A stretch of DNA of 64,000 nucleotides from a virus. Its lineage: Duplodnaviria > Caudoviricetes. The position numbers and the translations under genes are program-made. Shown one piece after another: positions 2,553 through 47,333 of the stretch. The stretch's first letter is position 1. The number at the start of each line of letters is the position of its first letter. Below the pieces are notes generated by a model that ran no database searches, had not been told where the DNA came from, and saw only the letters and a list, made by a program, of their open reading frames with translations. The stretch spans positions 1-64,000 of IMG/VR virus record IMGVR_UViG_3300014641_000001; one strand, written 5' to 3'.

Positions 2553-5177
2553 ATAGAACATACACAATATACACTTGTAAAGATACCGATTAGTTTACTT
2601 ATAAAACAGCATTTTAATATTAACATTGATAGAGCATCCGAAATAAATAATGAATATTTGATAAAACAAGGCGATTCCCCTTTATTTGACCAAATAGAAA
2701 AACTTCGCGGAAGATGCTCTACTCATGCAAGTGAGATAATTCTTGTAGTAGCAAAGAAAAATCCCAGGCAAGAATCTGCTTTACGGCAAATATTAAATAC
2801 TGGATTTACATACAACGGGATTCACTATACACGTTTTGGGAAATCCGCATCTCAGGGAAAAGATGGAATAACCGCTTTTGTATGTGATGATATATTTGAT
2901 GAGTTATACATGATAACTCAAATGGATGTTGAGATTTCAGAATGCGTTATTTCTAAATATGAATCACAAAGGTGCTTACTTTTTAGTTCATGTACTCTTA
3001 TTAAGGGTTATATGCCCAAAATTGTTATAGTTGATGAGTATGAAAAAACAATCAAGAATCAATGGATAAAATATGTGGTAGAAAAAGAAAAGGAATTTAC
3101 TGATAAAGAGACCGGGGAAATTAAGAAATATAATTCCAGGGAAATTGAGGAGGGATATAAAGATATCAAGATTTCTCCGTTTGATGGCTGTGGTTGTCAC
3201 GAAAAAGAGTTTATGGAAAAGGTGAGTTCTCAGATTGGTTTAGACTACAATGCTGTTGGTTCGCAGGTAAGAATTCCATTTATGAAGGGGTATTCAGTAT
3301 ATGTTCCATTCAGAGATATTTTCAGAGAGTGGGGATATGAATACATAACTGATATATACGGCAAAAGGCATCATATAGATGAGATTGACTGTATTTGGAA
3401 CACTTCTATGTTTAAAGGACACAAGATATTTAAAGAAAAGTACGGTAACGAAGCATGGAATGAATATATAAAAACCGCCAACAAGTATGGTTTTTGCTTA
3501 GGTATAAGTAAATACAGTCACCATATTAAACACTTAAACAAATATACTCGCATGAATTTTCAATATTTACAGTGTTTGGATTTGTGGAATAAAAAATACA
3601 TGGACCACTATAACGGTGAGAGCAATGATATCTACGATATTTTAGATGAAAACAATGATGGAAGGATAATTAAGCTAGCTAAGTATACGACTGAATTATT
3701 TGAAAAAATCATAAAGGGAGAAAAGTTTTATACTTATAAATTCATGGGTATAAACGACACTGAAAATTATGAGCCAGAAAGCAAATATCTTGAAGCTGCA
3801 CTGATAAATGATGTTATGCTAAAAGATCCGGCAGTAAAGCAATTTATCTATCGCAAGTTAAAAAAGTCTATTGATGAGATGAAAGTTGGAAAAATATACT
3901 GCTCAGGCTTTTATCATACTGGAGTTGGTGATATGTTTGGATATTTGCAATATGTCGTTGGTGAAGAGCCTGTTGGCTGCTTAGGTGCAAGAGAACTATA
4001 TAGTGGCAATTTTGCTATCGGAGATTGTGTGTCGTTTAGATCTCCTTTGGTTGATTCTTCAGAGGTCAATAAAGCTAAAATTGTGCAGAACGACATTACT
4101 TCAAAATGGTTTAGCCATTTTAAAGATCAAGATGTGGTCATGTTTAATATGAATGACATTTCTTTACCTCAACAGGGGGGTGCCGATATGGATGGGGACA
4201 TTTTCCTACTGAGTAAAGATGAAATCCTTGTATCTTCTAAAATCGAAAAACCAATAATCTTAGACATAGAGGATAAGGTGACTGCGAAACCAAAACCATA
4301 TACGAAAGAGAATATCATTGAATATGAGGTTATGACAAGAGACAATCGTATTGGGGAAATTACTAATGTGGCCACAAGTATTGAAAATAGATATGCTATA
4401 AACGATGATGTAAAGAAATTGTACTCTGACTACTCATCTCTTCTAAGGGTGTTTCAAGGCAAAGAAATCGACTTCATTAAAACCGGATTTAGATGGCATA
4501 TGAACAATGGACTCCGAAAGTATATGAAACAATTGCCATACTTTTTACTCTTTAATTATCCTAAGAAAATGAAATCATTTCTATCTTTATGTGAGAAAAA
4601 TAAGCATATAGAAAAGAAAGAAGACAAGTTAAAGTTAAATGCTTACCACTCTCCGTCTCCTATGAATGAACTGTGTGATTATGTTTGTACTTGGGAAAAG
4701 AAAAATATTTTGTGGGATAGTAATATTAATAATCTGGTTGATACCAGATGTTTAATCATAGATAACGACTTAGATTTATCTGATAAGAGAGTGATGAGAA
4801 TTTGTAGAAAATACATCAACGACTATGCCAGCGAGATTAAGAGGCATATAAATCTTAGAGATAATTCAGGTAATGATCATGATTGTTTTTCTATGGATTT
4901 TCTAATTGATGATTTCAAAGCAAGAATCTCAAGGGATCTAGGATTCAGCGATGACCTGACAGCTAATTACATAATCAAGGTATCTTACGGAAGTCTCTCC
5001 ATTAGTAAGTCGCTTGCTTGGTCGGCATATGGGGACTATATTATTCAGAATCTTAAAAGCAACACCAATCCAAAAAGAAATATTTCTATAAGGGAGGTTC
5101 CTTATAAAACAAACGATTCATATGAGTATCTTGGTAAATATTACGAGTTTGAGGTAGGTGATACATATATACGATAG
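2553..5177 (+). CDS. YonO-like single-subunit RNA polymerase (RdRP-like double-psi-barrel family)
   Basis: Catalytic 'GGADMDGD' motif plus 'FRSP' and 'DGCG'; size and position upstream of virion genes match SPbeta. The frame is open from 2538 and SD GAGGTGG precedes ATA at 2553 (track start is TTG 2658). Confidence 0.85.
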   Translation: MEHTQYTLVKIPISLLIKQHFNINIDRASEINNEYLIKQGDSPLFDQIEKLRGRCSTHASEIILVVAKKNPRQESALRQILNTGFTYNGIHYTRFGKSASQGKDGITAFVCDDIFDELYMITQMDVEISECVISKYESQRCLLFSSCTLIKGYMPKIVIVDEYEKTIKNQWIKYVVEKEKEFTDKETGEIKKYNSREIEEGYKDIKISPFDGCGCHEKEFMEKVSSQIGLDYNAVGSQVRIPFMKGYSVYVPFRDIFREWGYEYITDIYGKRHHIDEIDCIWNTSMFKGHKIFKEKYGNEAWNEYIKTANKYGFCLGISKYSHHIKHLNKYTRMNFQYLQCLDLWNKKYMDHYNGESNDIYDILDENNDGRIIKLAKYTTELFEKIIKGEKFYTYKFMGINDTENYEPESKYLEAALINDVMLKDPAVKQFIYRKLKKSIDEMKVGKIYCSGFYHTGVGDMFGYLQYVVGEEPVGCLGARELYSGNFAIGDCVSFRSPLVDSSEVNKAKIVQNDITSKWFSHFKDQDVVMFNMNDISLPQQGGADMDGDIFLLSKDEILVSSKIEKPIILDIEDKVTAKPKPYTKENIIEYEVMTRDNRIGEITNVATSIENRYAINDDVKKLYSDYSSLLRVFQGKEIDFIKTGFRWHMNNGLRKYMKQLPYFLLFNYPKKMKSFLSLCEKNKHIEKKEDKLKLNAYHSPSPMNELCDYVCTWEKKNILWDSNINNLVDTRCLIIDNDLDLSDKRVMRICRKYINDYASEIKRHINLRDNSGNDHDCFSMDFLIDDFKARISRDLGFSDDLTANYIIKVSYGSLSISKSLAWSAYGDYIIQNLKSNTNPKRNISIREVPYKTNDSYEYLGKYYEFEVGDTYIR

Positions 5178-6006
5178 TAGCGAAACATATTTGTATGAAA
5201 TAATTGAAGACTATAAGGATGCTAAGACAGAAGAAGAAAAGGGCGAAATATTTAAATCGTTCTGCTCTTCTATCTGGTCTTCCGATAATAAAAGAAGAAT
5301 ATACACTAAATCAATAAACTTTAAAGTTAGAAAAGATTTATTAGAGACAGATTTAGGACAAGTATTTAATACATGGTCAAGTGTGGATTATAAATATTAT
5401 AAGTCAATGACAAAAGATGAAAATTGGTGTTCTATCATTCGACAAAAAATAAATAATATCTACACTAGATATTTTGATAAAGAAATTATCCTTTCAAAAG
5501 AGTATATGGACTTACTGAAGACACCTAAAAGATTGTATTACCAGTGGATTGATGGAATAGAAATGAGTGATATAGACGTAACCAGAATAATCGATGATTC
5601 TATAGATGATTCAATAAAAGTAAAACAGCGATTACAAATAGAGAAAATGACATTATCATGGAAAGATTATAAGAAACTAGTTGAGGTTTTTTTACATAAG
5701 TGTTTTGATAACTGTAAACTAATTGGAGATTATGAGGATAAAACCAGCATATCAAGCCGGTTGGATTTTTTGACAGAGGATAATTTTTATGTAAGTTATG
5801 TGAATAGAAGTCTTGATGGAGAAATACGAAAATATCAAAAAAAATATTATAATGTGCGTGATCATCAGAAATATAAACGTTGTAAAACATGTAGAGATAT
5901 TATAGAAAAAACCAATAATAAAAAATTGTTTTGTAATGAGTGTGCTAAAAATAATGAACGTGAAAGAAAGCGAAAAATAGCCTATAAGTATCGAGTAGCG
6001 AAATAG
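5158..6006 (+). CDS. Hypothetical protein with C-terminal Zn ribbon; possible RNAP partner or transcription factor
   Basis: Overlaps the RNAP stop; CKTC...CNEC motif. Confidence 0.55.
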   Translation: MIHIYDSSETYLYEIIEDYKDAKTEEEKGEIFKSFCSSIWSSDNKRRIYTKSINFKVRKDLLETDLGQVFNTWSSVDYKYYKSMTKDENWCSIIRQKINNIYTRYFDKEIILSKEYMDLLKTPKRLYYQWIDGIEMSDIDVTRIIDDSIDDSIKVKQRLQIEKMTLSWKDYKKLVEVFLHKCFDNCKLIGDYEDKTSISSRLDFLTEDNFYVSYVNRSLDGEIRKYQKKYYNVRDHQKYKRCKTCRDIIEKTNNKKLFCNECAKNNERERKRKIAYKYRVAK

Positions 6007-6311
6007 AAAACCCTAATACACCTTGTATCTAAGCCATTTGTAGGCATTTTTAGCTACGTATATATCATGTATGGAAAGACAAGTAAACACTTCGGTAAGC
6101 AGTTCGACGAGTAAATCAAAATGGCTTATATTTAGCCAGTTTTAAATAATTGCTTATTCTTATAAACTTATATTTTAAGTTAATTTCACGTCATAATCGA
6201 CGAATTATCCCTTTATTATCAACGTTTTTTCGAACTCAGTGAGTTCACTCTTTCCCTTCAAGTCAATGGCAGCATTACCATTCTGGTGGTGTTGTCATTG
6301 GTATTTTTTAT

Positions 6312-6384
6312 GGGTGTATAGCTTAGTTGGTAAAGCAATCGGCTTTTAACCGATAGACCTTGGGTTCAACCCCCAATACACCCA
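6312..6384 (+). tRNA. tRNA-Lys(UUU)
   Basis: Cloverleaf: acceptor GGGTGTA/TACACCC, anticodon arm ATCGG-CTTTTAA-CCGAT, GGTTCAAC T-loop. Confidence 0.93.
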
Positions 6385-6433
6385 CTACCGTATAAAACGG
6401 AATACAATTAAGAAAGCGAAGTGAATTATTACA

Positions 6434-11014: not shown

Positions 11015-11866
11015 ATGGTAACAAAATTTACTAAGAAAGAATTATTGAGGTTGGGTTGTAGTGATGAAGAAATATCTCTGGTAATGAAGTATCAAAAATT
11101 ATTACCTATGCCAGACAAAGATTTTGAAATGAATGCACGAGCACTTCATGAGTATTTACATGTTGGCAAAGATGTTTCTGCGTGGATTGTTTCAAGAATT
11201 AAGAAATATGACTTTAAGGAAAATATAGATTACATAATTTCCTATGAGACAAGCAACTCCAAAATTGGAGACGCTGATTTTTCAATCTTATCACAAGCAA
11301 AACGTAGTGCGTTAGGAGTTAAAACAGAATATTATCTCACTGTAAATATGTGCAAGGAATTATGTACTATAGAGAACAATGAACTTGGCAGATTAGCAAG
11401 AAGATACTTTATTCTAATGGAAGATTTAATAAAAAGAAATGAGGTTTGGTGGAAAGTAAGAAAACCACAAAGATTAAATTATAAACCTATGTGTAAGGCC
11501 ATTTCTGAAGCTGTACGTAAATCTACTGGAAATTATGGTGACGATTCGGATTTTTCAAGAGAAGCAAATATACTTAACAGAATAGCTACTGGTTGTTCTG
11601 CATTAGAAATTAAACTGTATTTAGGCGTTGGAATCAATGAACTGACTCGTGACAATTTAACTAATGACTATAATGAGAAAATTGCATTTTTGCAGGAACA
11701 GAACATATTATTACTCGGAATGGGATTGCCAATTGTCCAGCGTGTCAATATGCTGATTTCATTTTTTGATATTAAGTATCCAGATGCAAAACCATTACAA
11801 CATTATTTTGACAGAGGTTATCTATTGAAAGCCAGAGAGAAAATTTTAGAAGAATTGAACCGTTAA
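11015..11866 (+). CDS. AntA/AntB family antirepressor
   Basis: 'NARALHEYL..GKDVSAWI..RIKKYDF.ENIDY' and 'EYYLTVNMCKEL...GRLARRYFI'. Confidence 0.85.
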   Translation: MVTKFTKKELLRLGCSDEEISLVMKYQKLLPMPDKDFEMNARALHEYLHVGKDVSAWIVSRIKKYDFKENIDYIISYETSNSKIGDADFSILSQAKRSALGVKTEYYLTVNMCKELCTIENNELGRLARRYFILMEDLIKRNEVWWKVRKPQRLNYKPMCKAISEAVRKSTGNYGDDSDFSREANILNRIATGCSALEIKLYLGVGINELTRDNLTNDYNEKIAFLQEQNILLLGMGLPIVQRVNMLISFFDIKYPDAKPLQHYFDRGYLLKAREKILEELNR

Positions 11867-35780: not shown

Positions 35781-37153
35781 ATGGCTGATTTTAGAACTCT
35801 CGTAGAACTTATATTTGATAAAGCAAAAGCGAGAAATGAATTAAATAGCATTTTAAAGGAATTACAAAAAGACGCCAATTTAAAAACGGAAATAAAAGTC
35901 GGTACTTCTGAAGCAAAGAAGGCAAAAAAGGATTTAAATGAAACCGCTTCAGCAATTGGGAAGATTGTAACTGAATCTAGGCAGTTGTCAAAAGTTAATA
36001 CAATTAAGACATGGGCTGACAACAACACTAAAGCCATGAAGATGTTTGGTGATCAGATTCAGGACATCATCACCAAAATGGGAAAGGCTAATCTTTCGCT
36101 GTCTGATTTTAAAGGTCTAGATGCCGATTTTAATAGGATTAAAATAGCGTCCAGAGATATGAATTTACTTGGTAAGACCTGGGGTGATTCGTTTAAGGCA
36201 GACGCAAGCAAATTTGCTTCATGGTTGCTTCCTTCTGGCGGAATCATGACTGCCATTAGTGGACTGCGTAAAATGAAGGATTCTATCGTTGATATAGATA
36301 CAGCCATGACTAATCTATATAAGGTGTCCGATGAAACAGACTCAAAATATAGACAGTTTCTTCAAAGTTCAAATATAGAAGCCCAGAGACTTGGGAGAAC
36401 AGTATCCAGTCTCATTGAGCAAACTGCAACTTGGAAAAAACTTGGTTTTACCACTGATGAGTCAAGTGAATTGGCGAAAATATCATCAATTTATGCTAAC
36501 GTAGGTGAAGTGTCTGATGACACTGCTGTTTCGGATTTAGTGACAGCAATGAAAGCCTTTAACATTGCAGGATCAGACAGTATAACAATTGTAGATTCGC
36601 TTAACAAATTGGGTAACGAATTTGCTACCGATGCTGCCTCTCTCGGAGAAGGACTAAAAAACTCCGCATCTTCTCTTCGTCTTGCAGGAAACGATATAGA
36701 TCAGACTCTTGCTATGCTAACAGGTGGTACAGAAATTATTCAGAATGCAGGAGAAATGGGAAATGCTCTGAAAATACTGAGTATGAGAATACGAGGTATG
36801 AAAGGCGAGCTGGAAGCACTCGGAGAAGAATATGACAATGTGGAGTCAATATCAAAAATCCAAACCCAGATCTTGAATCGTACTGGCGGTACAGTAAATA
36901 TATTTGACAATAATGGAAACTTCAAGTCTACGTATGAGATACTAAAGGGAATATCAGAAGTATGGGATAAAATTTCTCAAACCGACCAGGCCGACCTTTT
37001 AGAAGTTATCGCGGGTAAACAGCGCGGTAACAGCGTTGCAGCTTTAATTCAATCATTCCAATCTGGGCAAGTGCAAAAGGCATTAGAGGCTTCAATGAAC
37101 TCTGCTGGATCAGCTTATGAAGAACAGAGCAAATGGATGGAATCAATTGAGGC
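35781..37153 (+). CDS. Tape measure protein, exon 1
   Basis: TP901-like TMP core ('DTAMTNLYKVSDET', 'IVDSLNKLGNEFA', 'GNALKILSMRIRG', 'IAGKQRGN'); reading continues only if spliced after GAG GC. Confidence 0.88.
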
Positions 37154-37562
37154 AGACTTTTGCCTCGTTGCGTAGAAATATGTAACATTAATATATTTAA
37201 TTGCAGGTAATGCCTTAGAGCCTTACACCACAATATAGGGGAAACCACTATATGATGGTTTTACAACGTAAGGATTGGCTGTTCATGCAGCGAAGCACCC
37301 TAACGTATTCCGTAGACCATACGGTACTTTAGTCGAGGGTGAACGTTCAACGACTAGATTCATGTCGAGATTTGGACTAGAGAATAAGGGTGGAAATCCC
37401 GAATATCCAGATCAATAATCGTAGGGCGCAAATCGCAAATGGCGTGGGTGAAATTCCCTTAAATCGAAAAGGTATACTCTCAGCACGTAGTGGTGGAGAT
37501 GAAGAAATAGTCTAGTCTCATATGAAAATATGAGTTGATTGTTATTATAAAAAAGGAGTTTG

Positions 37563-37697
37563 AATGAAAAAATTCGTCAAAGAATATTCAACTCAATTAA
37601 CCCCATTAAAGGAGTATTTGGAGAAGGAATTAAATCCTCTTTCGCAAAAGTGATCTAAGGAGTAACTACATATAAGTACACAAATTCTGGAGAGTAA
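37563..37697 (+). pseudogene. Degenerate paralog of the 30829 gene, inside intron 1
   Basis: AAGGAG SD; 'MKKFVKEYSTQL...KGIKSSFAKVI*GVTTYKY' with frameshift and stop. Confidence 0.5.
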
Positions 37698-37761
37698 TTT
37701 ATATTACTCTCCTATTTTTATACAAGTAAATAGATAATTAAAGGAGAATAAACGTGGATAA

Positions 37762-39198
37762 ATGAACAAAAAATATAATCAAGAGAAGGCAATAGAAATT
37801 ATGCAGTCATACGGATATAAACTTGACGACATATATAAATCATATAACCATAAACTAAGAATAGTTGATAATGATGGATATATCTATTATAGAAGCCTTG
37901 GTGACATATTATCAAATAAAACACCCACGAAATTTGGTCGTGGGAATCCATTTACAATTGAGAATATTAAAAATTACACTTATCAAAATAATATACAAAC
38001 ACAATTGCTGTCTGAATCTTTTACTGAATCTAGTGGTTTATTATTATGGAAGTGTAGTTGTGGCAAATCATATACATGCTCGTGGAATGCATTTGAAAAC
38101 GATAAACATTTATGCAATGATTGCTCGATTAAAGACAGAGGACTTAAGCAAAGAATCAACAAGGCTAATGTAATTGATAAGGTTAAAAGTATGGGCTATC
38201 ATATTGTTGAAATTGCTGATGATATATGTGTTTTCGACAGCATAAAAATATCAGACGATTTAGGATATAAATATTATCCAGTAATAAATAATATCATATA
38301 CGATAAAAGACCTTTTAGGTTTCATAAATCAAATATTTTTTCAATCGATAATGTAAATAACTATTTTAGGCTAATTGGAGAAACTGATTATACATGCGTT
38401 AGCAATGAATATATTGACAATACCTCTGACTTGGAAATATTACATAAAAAATGCGGAACGGTATTTAATGCCAAACTCACTAAACTAACTGACAAAGGAG
38501 TTAGTTATTGCAATATGTGTCCAAAATGTAAAACGACTAAAACCGAATCGGTTCACGCATCAGTTCTGAAACAAGTATTTCTAAATAAACATCCTGATTC
38601 TGTATTAGAGGATAAATCTTGCATAAACTCAAAGACAGGCTACTCGCTCCCTACTGATATCGTTAATCACAGATTAAAATTGGCAATAGAAATACAAAGT
38701 TCTCTACATGATAATAGAAAGGATATTGATCTGTATAAAAAGAATTTCTGGATTGATAGAGGGTATGATTTTTATTCTCCCGATATTAGAGATTATTCTA
38801 TATTGGGTATGATACAATTATTTTTTAAAGATATCGAATCAATACCAAAATATATAGATTATAACTTTTCGAATTGTGTGGATTTCATCGAAATACAAAA
38901 CATGATTGATTCGGGGCATACGATTATTGAGATAGCTAGTATTAAGAATATCTCAGAAGCTACAATAAGGGGGCTCGTCACTGACAAAAAGGTAATCTTG
39001 CCTCCCGACTATAAAAATAAAATATTTAAAATAAAACCCATATTAAGGCTTGATGTTAAGGGAAATGTAATTAAAAGATATGAATCGTTAAGTTCTATAT
39101 CAAGAGATGGATTCGCCACAGGTACCATTAGAAGAGTATTAAAAGGTAAACAAAAGTTGTCGTATGGAACGAAATGGATTTATGACATAAAAAAATAA
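37762..39198 (+). CDS. Intron-encoded homing endonuclease (Zn motifs, PD-(D/E)XK-like core, NUMOD1-like tail)
   Basis: 'PTDIVN...AIEIQSSLHD'; CSC/CNDC/CPKC; C-terminal 'DVKGNVIKRYESL...GTKWIY'. Confidence 0.78.
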   Translation: MNKKYNQEKAIEIMQSYGYKLDDIYKSYNHKLRIVDNDGYIYYRSLGDILSNKTPTKFGRGNPFTIENIKNYTYQNNIQTQLLSESFTESSGLLLWKCSCGKSYTCSWNAFENDKHLCNDCSIKDRGLKQRINKANVIDKVKSMGYHIVEIADDICVFDSIKISDDLGYKYYPVINNIIYDKRPFRFHKSNIFSIDNVNNYFRLIGETDYTCVSNEYIDNTSDLEILHKKCGTVFNAKLTKLTDKGVSYCNMCPKCKTTKTESVHASVLKQVFLNKHPDSVLEDKSCINSKTGYSLPTDIVNHRLKLAIEIQSSLHDNRKDIDLYKKNFWIDRGYDFYSPDIRDYSILGMIQLFFKDIESIPKYIDYNFSNCVDFIEIQNMIDSGHTIIEIASIKNISEATIRGLVTDKKVILPPDYKNKIFKIKPILRLDVKGNVIKRYESLSSISRDGFATGTIRRVLKGKQKLSYGTKWIYDIKK

Positions 39199-39244
39199 AA
39201 ATAACAATCAAAGAATGGTATTGCGAACCATTCTAAATATATCG

Positions 39245-39434
39245 AAAAACACAACAGTATGAAGCTTCATTTCAATCACTATCACAAACTATTATTAATT
39301 CAAATTTCTTAAAGTTTCTTATAGATTCTGGTACGACATTTAATAATGTATTAGATAAGACAATAAACGGCTTTGGTGTTTTGTCTACTACGCTTTCCGG
39401 TGCTGGTATAGCGGCATTCATTAAAAACTACGGT
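39245..39434 (+). CDS. Tape measure protein, exon 2 (not in ORF track)
   Basis: No start codon; reads (A)KTQQYEASFQSLSQTIINSNFLKFLIDSG...GIAAFIKNYG, in frame with exons 1 and 3. Confidence 0.82.
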
Positions 39435-40079
39435 TAACTCTGTAATAAGAGTTACGCTTAAATTTCCGAGGGATTTAAGTTGGCCTATCATGGGGAAGAA
39501 TATATCATAATGGCGATATAAACAATTCCATGGGACGAAAGTTTTAAAATAAAAAGAGGATTAATTGCTTGAAAGTGTAATGCTCACTACTCTTCTATTT
39601 TAGAAGAAACCGAAAAATAAGGTAAATAAGTCAAACGGTTTACACACCGGAGTGAGATTTCTAGGGATAAAAAATAATTCCCGACAGATGTACAATCACC
39701 AACGAAGCAGCTAGCCCTATCTGTGTATCACGATGTATAATCCGATGGTAACAATTGCGCAAGCAATGTCGGGATAAGATCATTAATGATAGGGAGTGTT
39801 CAGAGAGCACCACTCCTCACAGTACATGAAAGCCATATTTCATTGTGCTGTTAACGCATGTTCCAAAGTGTACACGATATCAACGCTTCACGAGGCGCTG
39901 GATATTATAATGTTGTAAAAGATATGGGCTACAGCCTATCATTGAGCGTAATATGGAAAAGTTAATCGTTTCTATGTTATGTATCAAAATAGTTATGTAG
40001 ATTCTCCCATATTTTTAAATAAAGTATTTATTCTCCTTTTTATATGATTGAATACTAATATAATGTACCATCCTATATA

Positions 40080-40283
40080 TTGTTTGAATATAATACAATA
40101 AATCAAATGGAGATGTATAGAAATATGACGAAAAAAATTATTAATTTGACCGAAGAAGGCGAAGCTCTAGGATATCCAAAAACTCCAGATTCTGAGATGA
40201 TAGAGATGGGTATATTTGATGGAAAGATAATCAATTTTATAAAAGTAATGTTTATAAAGATAGTTAAAATGATGAAAAGGTAG
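40080..40283 (+). CDS. Small hypothetical protein (intron 2 cargo)
   Basis: GGAG SD suggests a later start (about 40124); ends at a hairpin. Confidence 0.4.
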   Translation: MFEYNTINQMEMYRNMTKKIINLTEEGEALGYPKTPDSEMIEMGIFDGKIINFIKVMFIKIVKMMKR

Positions 40284-40296
40284 TCAATAGACTACC

Positions 40297-40458
40297 TTAT
40301 TCCTCGTTCTTTTTATTTTTGTCGTTATCATTAACATGTTTAATTTCTGAGAACATCTCTACCACATATTCTGGTCTAGGCGTACTTGGATACTGTTCTC
40401 CTTTTTCATTGGTGTTATTAGTACTTGTCATCTTGATAACATTTTCATCGTCTGACAT
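40297..40458 (-). CDS. Small hypothetical protein, 53 aa (intron 2 cargo, not in track)
   Basis: GGAGGAG SD; 'MSDDENVIKMTS...KKNEE'; overlaps the end of the upstream membrane gene. Confidence 0.6.
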   Translation of the reverse strand: MSDDENVIKMTSTNNTNEKGEQYPSTPRPEYVVEMFSEIKHVNDNDKNKKNEE

Positions 40459-41023
40459 TTATTTCTCCTCCTTCTATATGAATATTTTGTATATTATTAT
40501 TTATAAATTTGGTCTCATAGTAATCAATACCGACACCGAATGTATACGATAAAATAGATACTGCGAAAGTGATGCATATGAAATAACTCAACGATTTATG
40601 TTTCATGTTCTTTGTAATGTTCACATTTCTATTATGAATGGCTTCATTAATAAAACATTCACAGAGCATATTATTTACATGTATATCTGCTTTTTTAATA
40701 TGCTTTTTATCTGTCATTTGATATGTTTGTGAGATCGCAACAGCCATATCTTTAATTGGGAAATAACTCATTTTATAGCCAGAGTATGCTTTATAAAACT
40801 TGTGCAAGCAAATTATAAATAAAATCGTTGACAAAGCGCAAAATATCAAGTAAACAATAGTACACCATGATAAAGAAAAACGAACAAATTGTGACCAAAG
40901 TAATATTTGTGCACTACCAAGTATTGTAAGAAACGTAATACAAGTATTAATTTTATTACTTAATCTATCGGAATATTCTATCTCCTTATAATATAAATCT
41001 TTGTATTCTTCAAGCAATTCCAT
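40445..41023 (-). CDS. Three-TM membrane protein (intron 2 cargo)
   Basis: AAGGAG SD; three hydrophobic segments. Confidence 0.75.
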   Translation of the reverse strand: MELLEEYKDLYYKEIEYSDRLSNKINTCITFLTILGSAQILLWSQFVRFSLSWCTIVYLIFCALSTILFIICLHKFYKAYSGYKMSYFPIKDMAVAISQTYQMTDKKHIKKADIHVNNMLCECFINEAIHNRNVNITKNMKHKSLSYFICITFAVSILSYTFGVGIDYYETKFINNNIQNIHIEGGEINVRR

Positions 41024-41309
41024 ATGATGATGTTCTCCTTTGTATCATATGGAATATTTTACCATCGTCAATACAATAAAACAAGAAACAGATGTTTGTC
41101 GATGAGGATATAAAATCGACATATTTCGACATTTATAATATTGAGTTAGTCATTAAGCTGTATATTAAAATAACATAAGCTGAACCCCTCTTTTATACTA
41201 CAATCTTGCGTCTTACTAGCTTCATTGTTTTCAAAATTTTTATACCTATCTGGAAATTTCTTCCACTCCATGATATAATAATTTTTAAAAGAGATACAGG
41301 AGGGATTGT

Positions 41310-41900
41310 ATGAAAAGGTTGGTTTTAGGGTTGTTATGTATCACTGTATGTTTACAATTAAGTGCTTGTGATAAAAACACGTCGGTCACCACAAGTAAAG
41401 AAAAAGAAACAATAACAGAATCATCAAATTTATCTGAAGATGAACAGAAAGCAGAATTAAATGCGATCTATCAAGAAATTGACGAAGCAAATAAATACTG
41501 TAATGATTTGGCAAAACTATTATATGACTATTGGGACAACCGTGAATATGAAGCGTTTTTTGACCACAGTGTTTTTTTGGAAAGAGATAAAAAATATAAT
41601 ACATACGGGAATTATAATAGTGGTAGTTTTTATGGCGATGCAAAGACCTGCTATGAATATCGTGATAAAATTGAAAAAAATATGGAAGATGCACGTCAAA
41701 GATTGAAAGAATTAGAGGTGTCTGAAAGTGTACAGGGGTATTATGATTCTGTAAAGAAGTTGTATTTGAATGTCGATGCATATCATAGTTTTGCATCTGA
41801 TTTCCCAGAAGGTTATTCAAAAATTACATATTCTCAAACATTTAGTAAACATCAATCAGAATACGACTCTTTAATAAGTGAATTAAAGTTTGAGCAGTAG
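41310..41900 (+). CDS. Lipoprotein (intron 2 cargo)
   Basis: Signal peptide with lipobox 'LSAC'; promoter TGGAAA-17-TATAAT with extended TG; own terminator. Confidence 0.8.
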   Translation: MKRLVLGLLCITVCLQLSACDKNTSVTTSKEKETITESSNLSEDEQKAELNAIYQEIDEANKYCNDLAKLLYDYWDNREYEAFFDHSVFLERDKKYNTYGNYNSGSFYGDAKTCYEYRDKIEKNMEDARQRLKELEVSESVQGYYDSVKKLYLNVDAYHSFASDFPEGYSKITYSQTFSKHQSEYDSLISELKFEQ

Positions 41901-41969
41901 TATATAAAAAGTTTGCTGACAGTATTAGTATATTCTAATAAATTATTTTTAGATATGATCACAAAATTT

Positions 41970-41998
41970 AGAGCCAGTTATTTGACTAGCTCTTTTTT
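41970..41998 (+). terminator. Intrinsic terminator inside intron 2, between convergent genes
   Basis: AGAGCCAGTT/GACTAGCTCT followed by T tract. Confidence 0.7.
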
Positions 41999-42063
41999 GT
42001 ATATAAAAGGGAGCAAAAATGCACTATCATATACGCTACAATTTTTCGATTTACTAATATCAA

Positions 42064-42489
42064 TCAAAACTTACTTCCACAGTTATTACACTTCCAAGTC
42101 TTACCGTTATCTCCCATGCCGAAAATTCCAAATGCAGCTATCTTTGCGACCTTTTTTGTTGCGGATATTTTAGAGAGGTTTGTGCTGCTACATGTGGGGC
42201 ACTTTGGAACATTTTGATGTGTACCTTTTGGAATGTATCCGGCTAAAAGACGAGTATCGCTTCCGGTAGTGGGTAAATCTTCTCTTGTGATTAAATCTGT
42301 GTCGGAAACATTCCCACAACAACATGTAATTAGAATTCCATCTTTTAACTTGCAATAATCTGAATTTACTCTATCAAATTTGTCATCTATTCCCTCTTTT
42401 ACAAATATTGTATTCCCGCATTTTTCGCAGAGTATTTCTATTTCTATTGGTGATCCATTCTCGTTATTAATAGCTTTTTTTAAATACAT
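42064..42489 (-). CDS. Zn-ribbon protein (intron 2 cargo)
   Basis: GGGAGGG SD before ATG 42489; CEKC, 'PKCPTCSSTN..KIS...K.WKCNNCG.KF'. Confidence 0.78.
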   Translation of the reverse strand: MYLKKAINNENGSPIEIEILCEKCGNTIFVKEGIDDKFDRVNSDYCKLKDGILITCCCGNVSDTDLITREDLPTTGSDTRLLAGYIPKGTHQNVPKCPTCSSTNLSKISATKKVAKIAAFGIFGMGDNGKTWKCNNCGSKF

Positions 42490-42518
42490 AGTTCCCTCCC
42501 TATACATATTTTATTATG

Positions 42519-45500
42519 CAACTGCAATCCCTCGGAAAGTCGATTGTGAACTTTAATAGCATTATAGCATCTGGGACAGGAACAAATCAATCTTTTGCGA
42601 AAGTTTTAGAAGGGATTAGCACACAGGAAAAAATCAATTTAGTAACTAGAAGCAGTCTAACCGATGCTCAAAAGATTGGTATTCTTGCAACAGCTGGTTT
42701 AAGTGCAGAGGAATTGAAAGCAGTAGCTTCCACTACTACTCTCTCCACTTCACAGACCACTGCAACAGCAACTACAACTGGATTCGGTACTGCCCTTAAA
42801 GGTCTTTGGGCAACCATGATGGCAAATCCTTTAATTGCAATAGGAATGGCCGTAACAGCTATCTCAACAGCATGGAATATTTATAATCAGTCCATCGAAA
42901 AAACAAGACAAGCTTCGGCCGATGCGGCGGGCGCATTAAACGAAACCACCTCATCAATTAATGATTATGCTGAAAAGTATAAAAAATTACACGATGAACT
43001 TGTCAAGGCAAATACTACCGAAGAACGTCAACATGAAATAAAAAGTGACCTTCTTGCGCTTCAACAAGAATTAAATGATAAGTACGGAGATGAATATGGC
43101 AAATTAAATCTTGTTACAGATGCTTATAATGATCAAACCGATGCAATCCTAGCAAGAAACAAAGCCGCGGCGCAGAATTATCTTCTTGAAAATAGAAAAG
43201 GTATAGCCGATGCTACAAAACAAATGGAACAAGACCGCACTTATACACTTGGTAGCACTGGTAATTTATCAAACGACTATGCAAAAGAAATATATAATAT
43301 AGCGTCAAAATATTCAGACCAGGGCATAAAATTAGAGTCTCTTAAAAATAACGGAGTAGATGCCTATACTATTAAGTTTTATGGAAATGCAGAAAATGCA
43401 GAAAAAGTTATACGTAGCCTCTCCAATGAGATCCAAGATCTTGGGCATAAATACGAAGATAATAATTTCATCAATGGATTCTTAGATAACTCAACAAATG
43501 CACTTAAAGAGAATCAAAAAACATTAGATAAATATGATGAAATATATAACTCTGCATTGATGTCTCAAATTGCAACTGACAATGAATTGTCGGGAGGTTA
43601 CGAGAAGGCCACAAGTGCCGTTAAAGCATATAACGATGCACTAATTTCTGGTGACGAATCTAAAATATTATCGACAAGAGATGACCTCAATGAAGTTAAA
43701 AATTCCATTGATTTAACAAGCGAAAACTGGAAACGATACGGGAATGTAATGACTGATATTTTCAGCCAGGCAAACACAGGGCTATACGATTTCAGAGATG
43801 CACTCTCTTCAAACAACGATAATATCAAAGACTATGCTAAAAGTCTAAAAGGTTTATCAAAGACAGATGTAATGTCCATGGCAAATGATGGGCAAGATGA
43901 TAACTTTGATAAAATAGTTAAATCTGCTGATAAATATGGATTAAGCGTTAACCAGGTCATCGATGAACTAATCAGATTGAAATACGTTCAAGATGATATC
44001 TTCAAGTCTGGTGAAGCAACATTCACTCCTCTCTCCAAACAAGAAGTAATTTCAAACATCAATTCACTGTCCGAAGGTTTTGAATCCCTTGATAAAATTA
44101 TGAAGAGCATATCCGACAAAGACAATCCATTTGACTATGCTCTGCTTGATGATGGTAAGTTTACGAAGATATTCAGCACCCTAAATGATGGTGGTGAAGC
44201 TTACGCTAACTTCATCGAAAAAGTGTCGTCATCACCCAAAGATATAAAAGCTACTCAAAGTGCATTTAACGATCTGGTAACAACTTGGATTGATAGCTCT
44301 GGTGTATTAGATGGGCTTACCGAAGACAATGCTAACCTTGCTACTGCTATGCTTCAGAATATGGGTGTTGCTAATGCCGAAGAAGTTGTAATGACAAGAC
44401 TTTCCATTGTACAGGAACACCTGGCAGCGCAAAAAGCTTATACGGCAGAAATGAGTGACGCTCTCGCCAATGCTACAGCTAGTGAAATTCCAGGAATCAT
44501 AGAAGAAGCAACTCAAAGTGACATAGCTAAAGTTGCACTGGCTGGTCTGGTATTAGAGAAAGAATTCTTCAATGGAAATGCACTAGATACTAGTGGTGAC
44601 ATTGAGAATATTATCTCTCTTGTTGGAGTAATTGGAACTGCTAATACGGCACTCAAAGCTTTAAATACTTTAAAGGCCGGAGGTAGTGTTGGTGGCAACA
44701 TAGGCGGAAAAGAAGGTTATGAAGCTCTTGTAAGAAATGCAGAAAAGGAAGCCGAAGACGCAATAAAATCTGCTTCCGAATATAAAGGCAAGGGAGCAAA
44801 TATTAATGCATCGTATACAGGTGGTACAAAAACAAATAAACCATCTGGCTCTAAAAAGGATAAAAAAGATTTCTCAGAAGTATTTGACTGGGTAGAAACT
44901 ACAATTAAACGAGTAGACGAAAAGATCCAAGACATCCAGAGTAAAATTTCTGATACATCAAACTGGAAGCCTAAAAACACTCTTACAGATACAGCTATTG
45001 ATGAAATGGCAAATAAAATAACTGCCTTACAGTCTCAGTTAGATACATACCAGAAGAAGGCAGATTCTTACAACCTCTCTCCCACTTACATAGACAAAAT
45101 CAAAAATGGCACTCTTGAAATTGAAACTGTTACTGATGAAGTAATTGCAAACAATATCAAAGGTTATCAAGAATGGTATAACAAAGCTGAAGATGTTCGC
45201 AAGAAGATAGATGAAACAAAAAAGACTTTGAAAGAACTTGCTCAGACCAAACTTGAAAATATTATCAATGATTTTGATAGTCTTGTTTCGTTAATGGATA
45301 AGTACGCTTCATATAGTAATAATCTTTTAAATCTACAAAAGGAATTGGGCGAATCTATTACCAATACAGATTATGAACGGTTAATTAATCAACAGGAAGC
45401 AATTTATAAGCAGTTGCATAGTAAGTATAATTCGCTATCCAATGAATTATCTAAAGCGGTAAGTAAAGGAACAATTGAGGTGGGTTCAAATGAATGGCGT

Positions 45501-47333
45501 AAATACAACGAGGAATTAATTGCTGTAAATTCCTCTATGAATGATGCTGTTTCTTCAATGAACGATTTCAGAAAAGCACTAATCAACTTGCCATTTGAGG
45601 AGCTAGAGAGGATTTCTAGTGCACTCGATGGAATTAACAATGGAATCAACACCATGTCTGATCTAATTGGCGACGATGGACTTTTAGACGGAGGAATGCT
45701 TACATCTAAGGGTCTTGCTAAAATTGCTCTATTAGGACAACAGTATGCTAATGCTAAACAACAAGCGGCCGATTACGAAGAAGCCATTAATGCTATTAAT
45801 GAGATGTATGAAAATGGTTCTCTCACACAGGCCGAGTATAACGAAAAACTCAATGAATATACCAACGCTCAATTATCAGCAGTAAAAGCTACGAAAGAAG
45901 CCGAACAAGCTATCTTGCAGTTTAGATATAATGCAATCCAGGCACAGATAGATGATATGAATAATTTAATTGCTGCCAAGAAGAAAGCATTGCAGACTGA
46001 AAAGGACTATCAGGATTATCTTGAAAGTATTAGCGAGAAACAGACTGACATTAATAATTTACAGGCAAAGATTGATGAACTGTCACTGTCTACCGATAGG
46101 AAAGATATTGCACAGAGATTACAGTTAGAACAGCAGCTATCAGATGCAAAGAAAGATTTGGCTAAGACACAAGCTGACTATGCTTATGATAAAACTATTG
46201 AAAGCCTAGATAAGCAGGAAGAGGACTATCAGGACGCAAAGAAAAAAGAGCTTGATGAACTTAAGTCAAATACTGATGCACAGAAGAAGGTAATAGAAGA
46301 ATATCTCGGACAGGTAAAAGATAACTACAAAACAGTCTACAATACCCTGACTAAGTATGGAACCGATTATAATGTTACCATGACTAGCGAACTAACTTCT
46401 CCATGGGAGTCAGCTAATAGCGCCGTGTCTACATTTAAAGACGCTGTGTCAGAAGCTATCTCACAGATTAATATTGACATTGCTAATATTGATTTGTCAA
46501 AGCTTACAGAATTAGTGAGTACAATGCAAGGATTCTCCGCAGGTGGAAATAATTCGGCTTCATTTGAGGATATTACCGGTTCCGGAACGTGGCAAAAGAA
46601 CTCTAGGGGCTGGTGGTACGGAGCTTCTAATGATGATTACGCTTCTGATGGAATCTACACCATTGGAGGTAAGCAGTATAGCTTCAACGAAGATGGCTAT
46701 ATGAAAACTGGTTGGGACGATAGCAATGGTGATTGGCGGTATTTTGAGCCTGAGAATGGTCAGATGGTTAAATCTGCATGGAGAAAGTCTAAAGATGGTA
46801 AAGACTACTATCTGAAATCTGATGGTACTATGGCTACAGACATGGCTATCAAAGCGAAAGACGGCAACGGGTATTATTATATTGATGACAGTGGTGTATG
46901 GGACGGAAAAACAATATCCTATGATGATGTGAAAAAGAGAAATATCACTGTTGGATATAAAAGTGGCACTACTAATTCTAAGCCAGGATTAAAATATGTT
47001 AACGAAGATGGGCCAGAATTGATTGTTGCTAAAAATGGTACTGTTCTCAATTCAGTAGGTGGCGATACCATCTTTACAAAGAATATGACTGATAAGCTAT
47101 GGGATTTTGCTATTGATCCAAGTAAGTTTGTGTTGGCTAATATGCCGAAGTATGATTATAGGGCAATGGCTATGGCTAATCGAAACAACGTTTCTATGAA
47201 TATCGATAGCCCACTACTTGTAGTACAGGGTAACGCAGATAAAGAAGTATTAACTCAAATGAATGAAAGACTAGATACTTTCATTAACAAGGAAATACCT
47301 CAGAAAATGATGGAAATGTCAAAACAACATTAA
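42519..47333 (+). CDS. Tape measure protein, exon 3, with C-terminal cell-wall-binding repeats
   Basis: Long coiled coil; 'ANPLIAIG'; 'VNEDGPEL'; no SD before ATG 42516. Confidence 0.88.
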   Translation, partial: QLQSLGKSIVNFNSIIASGTGTNQSFAKVLEGISTQEKINLVTRSSLTDAQKIGILATAGLSAEELKAVASTTTLSTSQTTATATTTGFGTALKGLWATMMANPLIAIGMAVTAISTAWNIYNQSIEKTRQASADAAGALNETTSSINDYAEKYKKLHDELVKANTTEERQHEIKSDLLALQQELNDKYGDEYGKLNLVTDAYNDQTDAILARNKAAAQNYLLENRKGIADATKQMEQDRTYTLGSTGNLSNDYAKEIYNIASKYSDQGIKLESLKNNGVDAYTIKFYGNAENAEKVIRSLSNEIQDLGHKYEDNNFINGFLDNSTNALKENQKTLDKYDEIYNSALMSQIATDNELSGGYEKATSAVKAYNDALISGDESKILSTRDDLNEVKNSIDLTSENWKRYGNVMTDIFSQANTGLYDFRDALSSNNDNIKDYAKSLKGLSKTDVMSMANDGQDDNFDKIVKSADKYGLSVNQVIDELIRLKYVQDDIFKSGEATFTPLSKQEVISNINSLSEGFESLDKIMKSISDKDNPFDYALLDDGKFTKIFSTLNDGGEAYANFIEKVSSSPKDIKATQSAFNDLVTTWIDSSGVLDGLTEDNANLATAMLQNMGVANAEEVVMTRLSIVQEHLAAQKAYTAEMSDALANATASEIPGIIEEATQSDIAKVALAGLVLEKEFFNGNALDTSGDIENIISLVGVIGTANTALKALNTLKAGGSVGGNIGGKEGYEALVRNAEKEAEDAIKSASEYKGKGANINASYTGGTKTNKPSGSKKDKKDFSEVFDWVETTIKRVDEKIQDIQSKISDTSNWKPKNTLTDTAIDEMANKITALQSQLDTYQKKADSYNLSPTYIDKIKNGTLEIETVTDEVIANNIKGYQEWYNKAEDVRKKIDETKKTLKELAQTKLENIINDFDSLVSLMDKYASYSNNLLNLQKELGESITNTDYERLINQQEAIYKQLHSKYNSLSNELSKAVSKGTIEVGSNEWRKYNEELIAVNSSMNDAVSSMNDFRKALINLPFEELERISSALDGINNGINTMSDLIGDDGLLDGGMLTSKGLAKIALLGQQYANAKQQAADYEEAINAINEMYENGSLTQAEYNEKLNEYTNAQLSAVKATKEAEQAILQFRYNAIQAQIDDMNNLIAAKKKALQTEKDYQDYLESISEKQTDINNLQAKIDELSLSTDRKDIAQRLQLEQQLSDAKKDLAKTQADYAYDKTIESLDKQEEDYQDAKKKELDELKSNTDAQKKVIEEYLGQVKDNYKTVYNTLTKYGTDYNVTMTSELTSPWESANSAVSTFKDAVSEAISQINIDIANIDLSKLTELVSTMQGFSAGGNNSASFEDITGSGTWQKNSRGWWYGASNDDYASDGIYTIGGKQYSFNEDGYMKTGWDDSNGDWRYFEPENGQMVKSAWRKSKDGKDYYLKSDGTMATDMAIKAKDGNGYYYIDDSGVWDGKTISYDDVKKRNITVGYKSGTTNSKPGLKYVNEDGPELIVAKNGTVLNSVGGDTIFTKNMTDKLWDFAIDPSKFVLANMPKYDYRAMAMANRNNVSMNIDSPLLVVQGNADKEVLTQMNERLDTFINKEIPQKMMEMSKQH

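Follow-up and report, generated by a model that had tools for sequence, protein, structure and literature searches.

A phage tape measure gene probably split by two group I introns, one of them a candidate new family with variable cargo genes

Introduction

Is the tape measure protein (TMP) of the phage in IMG/VR record IMGVR_UViG_3300014641_000001 the product of one gene or of several? The window analyzed here is the first 64 kb of this 124-kb record, which is 61% complete, and its open reading frame (ORF) listing presents the TMP locus as a 464-aa frame (positions 35781–37175), a 1605-aa frame (42516–47333), and further ORFs between the two. An earlier note, made from the letters of the window alone, had read the locus as a single gene in three exons. 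We conclude that this is probably correct, that is, that the TMP is encoded by one gene in three exons from which two self-splicing group I introns, intron 1 and a second intervening sequence (IVS2), are removed, and we infer from sequence comparisons that both RNAs are spliced, in cis, in infected cells. Sequences of relatives are referred to by our own handles (L003, P0001, and so on).

Results

Exons of the tape measure gene

The three exons lie on the plus strand at 35781–37153, 39245–39434, and 42519–47333; when joined, they give 6378 nt, or 2125 codons, with one stop, which is terminal. Exon 1 (457 codons plus 2 nt) is preceded by the Shine-Dalgarno (SD) sequence GAGAGGAG and matches the PhageMin_Tail family (PF10145) with an E-value of 1e-21. 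Exon 2 (190 nt) sits in a frame that opens at 39237, 9 nt upstream of the exon, and is directly followed by TAA; it has no start codon and is therefore absent from the ORF listing. Exon 3 consists of 1604 codons plus the stop and begins with CAACUG. Besides PF10145, the gene is marked as a TMP gene by its place in the tail module and by a match to the TMP profile phrog_4211, of which exon 1 corresponds to positions 578–883 and exon 3 to positions 954–1674, leaving a gap of ∼70 positions, the size of exon 2. The N part of the TMP resembles SPbeta YomI (yomI) and the TMP of Brevibacillus phage Sundance, prophage relatives are present in Lachnospiraceae genomes (Lacrimispora sp. HJ-01 and one Lachnospiraceae metagenome-assembled genome), and, judged by its sequence, the phage is SPbeta-like. 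Lacrimispora sp. HJ-01 is an isolate whose genome, NZ_CP173277.1, is complete; its prophage TMP, which carries an IVS2-type intron, is L034. A search of the incomplete record with SPbeta YonO, a YonO-type phage RNA polymerase, gave no match, which is uninformative either way.

Four homologs of the TMP, recovered when longer relatives of exon 1 were sought, are uninterrupted (P0001, 2139 aa; P0002, 2124 aa; P0003, 2129 aa; P0006, 2202 aa) and end in the same C-terminal choline-binding repeats as the TMP of the window. All four map to the window as three collinear pieces by tblastn; with P0002, residues 2–455 correspond to 35799–37154, residues 456–526 to 39246–394xx, and residues 533–2093 to 42552–47207. 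The segment E-values for the exon 1, exon 2, and exon 3 pieces are 5e-163, 5e-20, and 0, respectively. Alignment with MAFFT runs through both junctions, IEA|KTQQY and KNYG|QLQS, without an indel, with zero residues lost or gained. The earlier note's coordinates and single 2125-aa frame, its remark that the startless middle exon would be missed, and the collinearity with intron-free homologs that it had proposed as a check are thus all borne out, as is its warning that such a locus would be annotated as separate TMP genes. Relative to three relatives, the ratio of nonsynonymous to synonymous substitution rates (dN/dS) is 0.06–0.15 for the N part and 0.12–0.38 for the C part, values that indicate that both halves of the TMP are under purifying selection. 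Exon 1, the intron-1 ORF, and a lipoprotein gene in IVS2 are each preceded by an SD sequence; none is found in the window before exon 3 (ATG at 42516). Broader searches returned little: a megablast search of the locus against phage records and a tblastn search with the N terminus of exon 3 gave no match, and exon 2 used alone as query gave weak matches only.

Three further observations concern the exons. At the C terminus of the TMP (46650–46900, exon 3 residues ∼1379–1462), there are choline-binding repeats (PF19127 and PF19085) and matches to endolysin PHROGs, because of which this end of the protein appears to include a cell-wall-binding module. In L003 and L004, DNA matches of 87%–92% flank the first ∼190 nt of exon 3 (42519–42713) but do not cover them; the protein encoded by this segment is homologous but far more divergent, which fits a recombination or co-conversion tract beside the intron. 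Finally, in the metagenomic relative L038 (6328–12059), the TMP has at least one extra interruption upstream of the IVS2 site: the stretches homologous to residues 27–311 and 410–525 are in different frames and separated by ∼4 kb. Three or more introns may therefore exist in some relatives.

Intron 1

Intron 1 (37154–39244, plus strand) is a group I intron of 2091 nt that ends in G39244. Its core, P1–P9, occupies 37144–37534 and matches the full length (positions 1–253) of the Rfam model RF00028 with 56.2 bits (gathering threshold 50) and an E-value of 1e-13, a result obtained on a 451-nt stretch; when Rfam was run on the whole 64-kb window or on 36900–42700 (5.8 kb), no intron was reported, which we ascribe to the search filters. 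P1 can be written as GAGGC|A...UGCCUC, with the pair C37153-G37162 at the cleavage site, and R-like (37345–37358) and S-like (37501–37513) elements are present, as is a 3′ hairpin at 39213–39233. An alternative 5′ splice site after U37147, which would provide a U.G pair, was rejected: two conserved residues, E and A, would be lost, and the DNA of the relatives runs continuously to 37153.

The relatives L003 and L004 are exactly without intron 1, their DNA being continuous from the equivalent of 37153 to the equivalent of 39245, and the joined exons of the window are collinear with these intron-less alleles. Both are close relatives, with exon 1 proteins 96% (L003) and 91% (L004) identical to that of the window and, for L003, exon 1 DNA 94.5% identical up to 37153. 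Because intron 1 is precisely absent from them, it is best seen as a recent mobile insertion, one that would have entered this lineage by homing.

Related introns are found in other phages. In blastn searches, the intron 1 core shows ∼72% identity over 123 nt to the intron region of Staphylococcus phage K lysK, an intron that interrupts an endolysin gene and carries another endonuclease ORF, and a gut phage intron is 72.6% identical over 93% of the query. The L041 gut-phage intron, 72% identical to intron 1, lies at another TMP site, shares the ...AGGC|A...G|A junctions of intron 1, and leaves a collinear protein once removed. A short ORF starting with MKKF.KEY follows the intron-1-type core both in the window (37565–37651) and in L041 (∼4395).

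The main ORF of intron 1 (37762–39198, plus strand, with its own SD sequence) encodes a 478-aa homing-endonuclease-like protein unrelated to the endonuclease-like protein of the L041 intron. Its sole family match is phrog_559, annotated “HNH endonuclease” (E = 2e-19); searches of Pfam, NCBIfam, and PDB gave no match, no Pfam HNH family appeared up to an E-value of 10, and an HNH motif was not seen by eye. The protein has two CxxC pairs and a D...ExQ...HD stretch; judged by eye, its sequence looks more like a PD-(D/E)xK/Vsr-type core.

The IVS2 core and its junctions

IVS2 (39435–42518, plus strand) is 3084 nt long and consists of a 5′ core (39435–39864), cargo genes, and a short AT-rich tail that ends in G42518. 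We first drew the structure of the core by hand, using the window sequence, and then tested it on an alignment of eight sequences, A4. Of 498 cells representing the 66 proposed pairs in 11 helices, 97.2% are paired, as compared with 36%–49% when one strand is slid by 1–3 columns, although this percentage is biased upward since the structure was derived from the same sequences. Double changes are the stronger evidence: both sides have changed in 22 pairs, versus 1–3 in the slid controls, and none of 500 shuffles reached the observed value.

The helices P3 to P8 come in the canonical order. P1 (39435–39441/39448–39454) starts at intron position +1 in all eight sequences, in three distinct versions that are each complementary (UAACUC/GAGUUA, UAGCCA/UGGCUA, and CAGCC/GGCUG), with a U at exon position −1 in all eight, and is followed by P2 (39457–39466/39470–39479). 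P3 (39556–39560/39814–39818) reads GAGGA/UCCUC in the window and AAGGA/UCCUU in L010 and L038, P4 (39565–39570/39705–39710) reads UUGCUU/AAGCAG, and P5 (39575–39577/39697–39699) reads GUG/CAC or, elsewhere, CCA/UGG or CCG/CGG. P6 (39715–39721/39788–39794) carries two further helices, the last with a GNRA loop, and P8 (39821–39831/39838–39849) is a long helix. The guanosine-binding helix P7, in which the strand G39803[A39804]G39805AGCA (ending at A39809) pairs with UGUUCC (39859–39864), displays a bulged A adjoining a G-C pair, as is canonical; its 5′ strand varies between AG, GA, and AA, all facing an invariant UU. The R-like sequence GUUCAGAGAGCAC is comparable to GUUCAaAGACUA in the Rfam consensus. 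An extended P5 and a P2.1 are present, the P5 extension being wholly missing in L014, and P7.1 and P7.2, between P7 and the 3′ strand of P3, are absent.

The covariation, the start of P1 at position +1, and the agreement of the P3/P7 pseudoknot, the order of the helices, and the P-, R-, and S-like sequences with the Rfam group I consensus lead us to read the 5′ element of IVS2 as a divergent group I core. A group II intron was considered and set aside, as the 5′ end is not GUGYG and domain V was not seen by eye; an intein or split intein was rejected because of the in-frame stops and because the homologs leave no extra residues. A blastn search with the core against phages gave no match.

Two observations stand beside the core. 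Columns 260 and 278 of A4 (39796 and 39813), that is, the nucleotide two positions after the 3′ strand of P6 (G or A) and the nucleotide just before the 3′ strand of P3 (C or U), covary perfectly in all sequences, with G-C in four and A-U in four, and again in L039; such a pair would bracket the 5′ strand of P7 and falls outside the standard group I drawing. L039 itself (3916–4071) holds only the 3′ half of an IVS2-type ribozyme, from P6b to the 3′ strand of P7, on a contig without a TMP match, and may be a recombination remnant or an IVS2-type intron in another context.

As judged by nhmmer, homologs of the first ∼440–470 nt of IVS2 follow the same TMP codon in L003, L004, L005, L010, L014, L034, L038, and L040, and many relatives have a TMP N part that stops at one and the same residue (...KNYG*, ...KNFD*, or ...KNLD*). 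The total length ranges from 861 nt in L010 through 3084 nt in the window, ∼3.5 kb in L003, 3.9 kb in L034, 4.4 kb in L004, and 7.1 kb in L014 to 11.5 kb in L005. In each of these seven the 3′ junction is G|CA(A/G), and the protein resumes at Q(L/F)(K/Q) in every version. In L010 the triplet before exon 3 is TAG (TAG|CAA), and there is no start codon at the junction or for 22 codons beyond it. The split is kept in lineages with only 45%–60% protein identity, each with long intact frames (1610–2405 aa), and in three diverged lineages the IVS2 junction matches uninterrupted homologs in exact collinearity. In L007, L008, L012, L018, and L033 (locus ∼11300–11650), the N-part frame stops nearby and unrelated sequence follows; in L033, where the TMP N part ends differently and the sequence after it is different, Rfam gave no match.

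Cargo genes of IVS2

Between the core and the 3′ junction, the window holds three cargo genes: a 192-aa predicted membrane protein (40445–41023, minus strand, antisense to the TMP gene), a 196-aa predicted lipoprotein (41310–41900, plus strand) with a signal peptide, an LSAC lipobox, and its own SD sequence, and a 141-aa double zinc-ribbon protein (42064–42489, minus strand) with the SD sequence GGGAGGG at 42491–42500 and a promoter-like site at 42590–42561, inside exon 3. The DNA of the window and L003 is 99.4% identical over 39243–41320 and then diverges, and the lipoprotein gene is absent from L003. Of the seven versions in which the 3′ junction was located, six (window, L003, L034, L005, L010, and L014) have an antisense zinc-ribbon gene adjoining exon 3; L004 has a lipoprotein gene in this position instead. 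The cargo proteins had no match in PADLOC and no significant Pfam or NCBIfam family, so that none can be assigned, and the zinc-ribbon protein matched only unnamed clusters. The IVS2 of L005 includes genes like those of insertion sequences (IS). In L031 (reverse complement, 4009–6411), the 11.5-kb IVS2 of the L005 phage shows what resembles an IS66-type unit, made up of a 533-aa ORF and two small ORFs, and this IVS2 also contains several large sense-strand ORFs.

It is an evenly balanced matter, in our judgment, whether IVS2 constitutes a distinct, uncatalogued group I family in the TMP of SPbeta-like Lachnospiraceae phages, the 3′ periphery of which has turned from an endonuclease slot into a landing pad for genes of the lysogenic-conversion type (0.4 to ∼11 kb, often antisense).

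Discussion

In the model that we favor, late transcription would proceed through ∼11.5 kb of the TMP locus, and two group I introns would then self-splice out to leave the 6378-nt frame of a 2125-aa ruler protein. Intron 1 would be of the standard phage type, with a 5′ core, an endonuclease-like ORF, and a 46-nt 3′ tail to the final G. IVS2 would represent a divergent family of group I introns that, in this TMP lineage, has become fixed at the codon boundary KN(Y/F/L)(G/D)|Q(L/F), with all its catalytic helices in the first ∼440 nt and a remote 3′ splice site at the G before CAA; the region from the core to the last 30–90 nt would have become a variable site for moron-like membrane, lipoprotein, and zinc-ribbon genes, often antisense. 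It is tempting to speculate, as the earlier note did, that the two splicing events act as a checkpoint in tail assembly.

Several of our results weigh against this model, and some of them would suit a rival scheme, in which only intron 1 is spliced, IVS2 is a fixed insertion, and the TMP is translated as two proteins: one of 521 aa (the N part) that runs to the TAA at 39435–39437 and one of 1605 aa (the C part) from the ATG at 42516. The conserved 5′ RNA would in that case be a relic or have another role, such as 3′ end formation or stabilization of the upstream mRNA. A stop comes directly after the 5′ junction in most versions, and the triplet just before exon 3 is ATG or TTG in the window, L003, L034, L004, L005, and L014 (in five of six distinct versions), which would permit separate translation. 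Core and 3′ splice site are 2.6 kb apart in the window and as much as ∼11 kb apart in L005, and antisense genes with their own promoter as well as sense-strand terminator-like hairpins intervene, making cargo of up to 11.5 kb demanding for both read-through and folding. Rfam does not call the IVS2 RNA: RF00028 gave no match up to an E-value of 10 on window positions 39420–39990 or on the minimal L014 form. Conservation is lacking in the IVS2 tails that lead up to the 3′ splice site, and P9-like candidates between the nucleotides after the 3′ strand of P7 and the tail (GUGUA/UAUAC in the window, AAAGUAC/GUACUUU in L010, GGUAAAC/GUUUAUU in L014), consistent as they are in position, are not above chance, each being equaled by 20%–60% of shuffled AT-rich tails. 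P10 (AACU/AGUU) fits the window and L010 and is weak or does not fit in L014, and the exon-side pairing of P1 amounts to just 3 bp after a bulge of 1–4 nt and is absent in L005. Intron 1, too, departs from the rule in having a C-G pair (C37153-G37162) rather than the usual U.G at its 5′ splice site; since the L041 intron has the same ...AGGC|A junction, the C at −1 looks like a lineage trait, not an error.

We nevertheless consider two separately translated proteins unlikely, because the TAG|CAA junction of L010 would leave the C part with no start codon at the junction or nearby, because exon 3 has no SD sequence, and because exact junction collinearity has been kept in three diverged lineages, for which separate genes would have no need. 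Moreover, a complete catalytic core with compensatory changes, including the guanosine-binding P7, is unexpected in a relic, and P1 starts exactly at the junction. Far less probable still is that the prophage is defective and the gene in decay, its open frames being what is left after insertions inactivated the TMP; in favor of this, the record is an incomplete metagenomic contig and the IVS2 of L005 has IS-like genes, but the N part and the 1604 codons of exon 3 are intact, their dN/dS values are those of constrained sequence, and the same split recurs with intact frames at 45%–60% protein identity. Trans-splicing, in which a core-bearing upstream transcript would be joined to a separate transcript that starts inside the cargo, could make sense of the sense-strand terminator-like hairpins there and of the short complementarity between the post-P7 nucleotides and the 3′ tail; that complementarity is 5–8 bp and not above chance, however, a conserved 3′ RNA domain is lacking, and the 29-nt spacer of the window yielded no promoter that could serve a 3′ transcript, so we regard it as a very improbable route. 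Splicing of both introns in cis thus remains our preferred reading.

How do these introns relate to known ones? Group I introns at three TMP sites (TMP-IVS1, TMP-IVS2, and TMP-IVS3) were described in prophages of the Bacillus cereus group by Tourasse and Kolsto (2008), with two in one TMP gene of B. cereus E33L; relatives have adapted to different sites via P1, and a homing endonuclease gene is missing from some of them (PMC2504315). TMP was later described as a frequently interrupted gene, and splicing of the TMP transcript of Vibrio phage ICP1, the intron or introns of which carry HNH-3 endonuclease genes (two in the locus of one isolate), was observed by RNA sequencing and reverse-transcription PCR (RT-PCR) (Barth et al., 2023; PMC10448857). 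As TMP group I introns, including two in one gene, have been known since 2008, a three-exon TMP is of a known kind, and the novelty implied in the earlier note falls away; the assignment of both introns to group I is upheld by Rfam for intron 1, whereas for IVS2 it is supported by the covariation in the core and not by Rfam. What is new is an Rfam-invisible intron family at a fixed TMP codon, with variable, largely antisense, non-endonuclease cargo. The B. cereus-group introns resemble ours in being group I introns that lie in the TMP of temperate Firmicutes phages, but they belong to IA1/IA2, are of ordinary size, are found by standard models, and reside in lambdaBa01-like phages; ours reside in an SPbeta-like phage of Lachnospiraceae, and IVS2 lacks P7.1/P7.2, is not seen by RF00028, and carries kilobases of non-endonuclease cargo. 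With ICP1, our locus shares a TMP split by an endonuclease-bearing intervening sequence and an endonuclease content that varies in constant surroundings, in our case between the window and L041; neither the host nor the phage type nor the intron sequences are related, and splicing was observed there and is deduced here. A precedent for antisense genes inside a spliced intron of a phage structural gene is provided by the capsid intron of mycobacteriophage LittleE, which holds an antisense endonuclease ORF and is spliced as judged by RT-PCR (Pope et al., 2013; PMC3706429). Unlike IVS2, the LittleE intron, from an unrelated phage group, has a single endonuclease ORF and not accessory cargo.

The layout of both introns, with a 5′ core and a remote 3′ splice site, recalls the T4 sunY (nrdD) intron, in which, reportedly from work by Michel and colleagues in 1990, the conserved core helices all lie upstream of a long insert, with the remote 3′ splice site said to be set by the terminal G and short pairings. 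The sunY insert is reportedly one sense-strand endonuclease ORF of ∼0.8 kb; IVS2, by contrast, holds 0.4–11 kb of variable genes, mostly antisense. The Clostridioides difficile IStron CdISt1 likewise has a 5′ group I ribozyme followed by kilobases of non-intron genes and is excised as a unit. Its cargo is an IS200/IS605-type transposon that mobilizes the element, whereas the IVS2 of the window has no transposase.

For annotation, the consequence is that gene callers split this TMP into proteins of 464 and 1605 aa and lose exon 2; the protein databases contain many truncated relatives that end in ...KNYG, and a prediction of tail length from TMP size would err by a quarter. A group I family that Rfam misses even on short sequence would also mean that surveys of gut-phage introns undercount. 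The 861-nt form in L010 is a compact IVS2 candidate for in vitro work. If the landing-pad reading of IVS2 is true, TMP synthesis would depend on a ribozyme that reaches a 3′ splice site kilobases away, and an essential late gene would double as a safe harbor for accessory cargo. The presence of the same intron at the same codon with unrelated cargo in related phages hints that an intron may provide an essential gene with a site that tolerates insertions.

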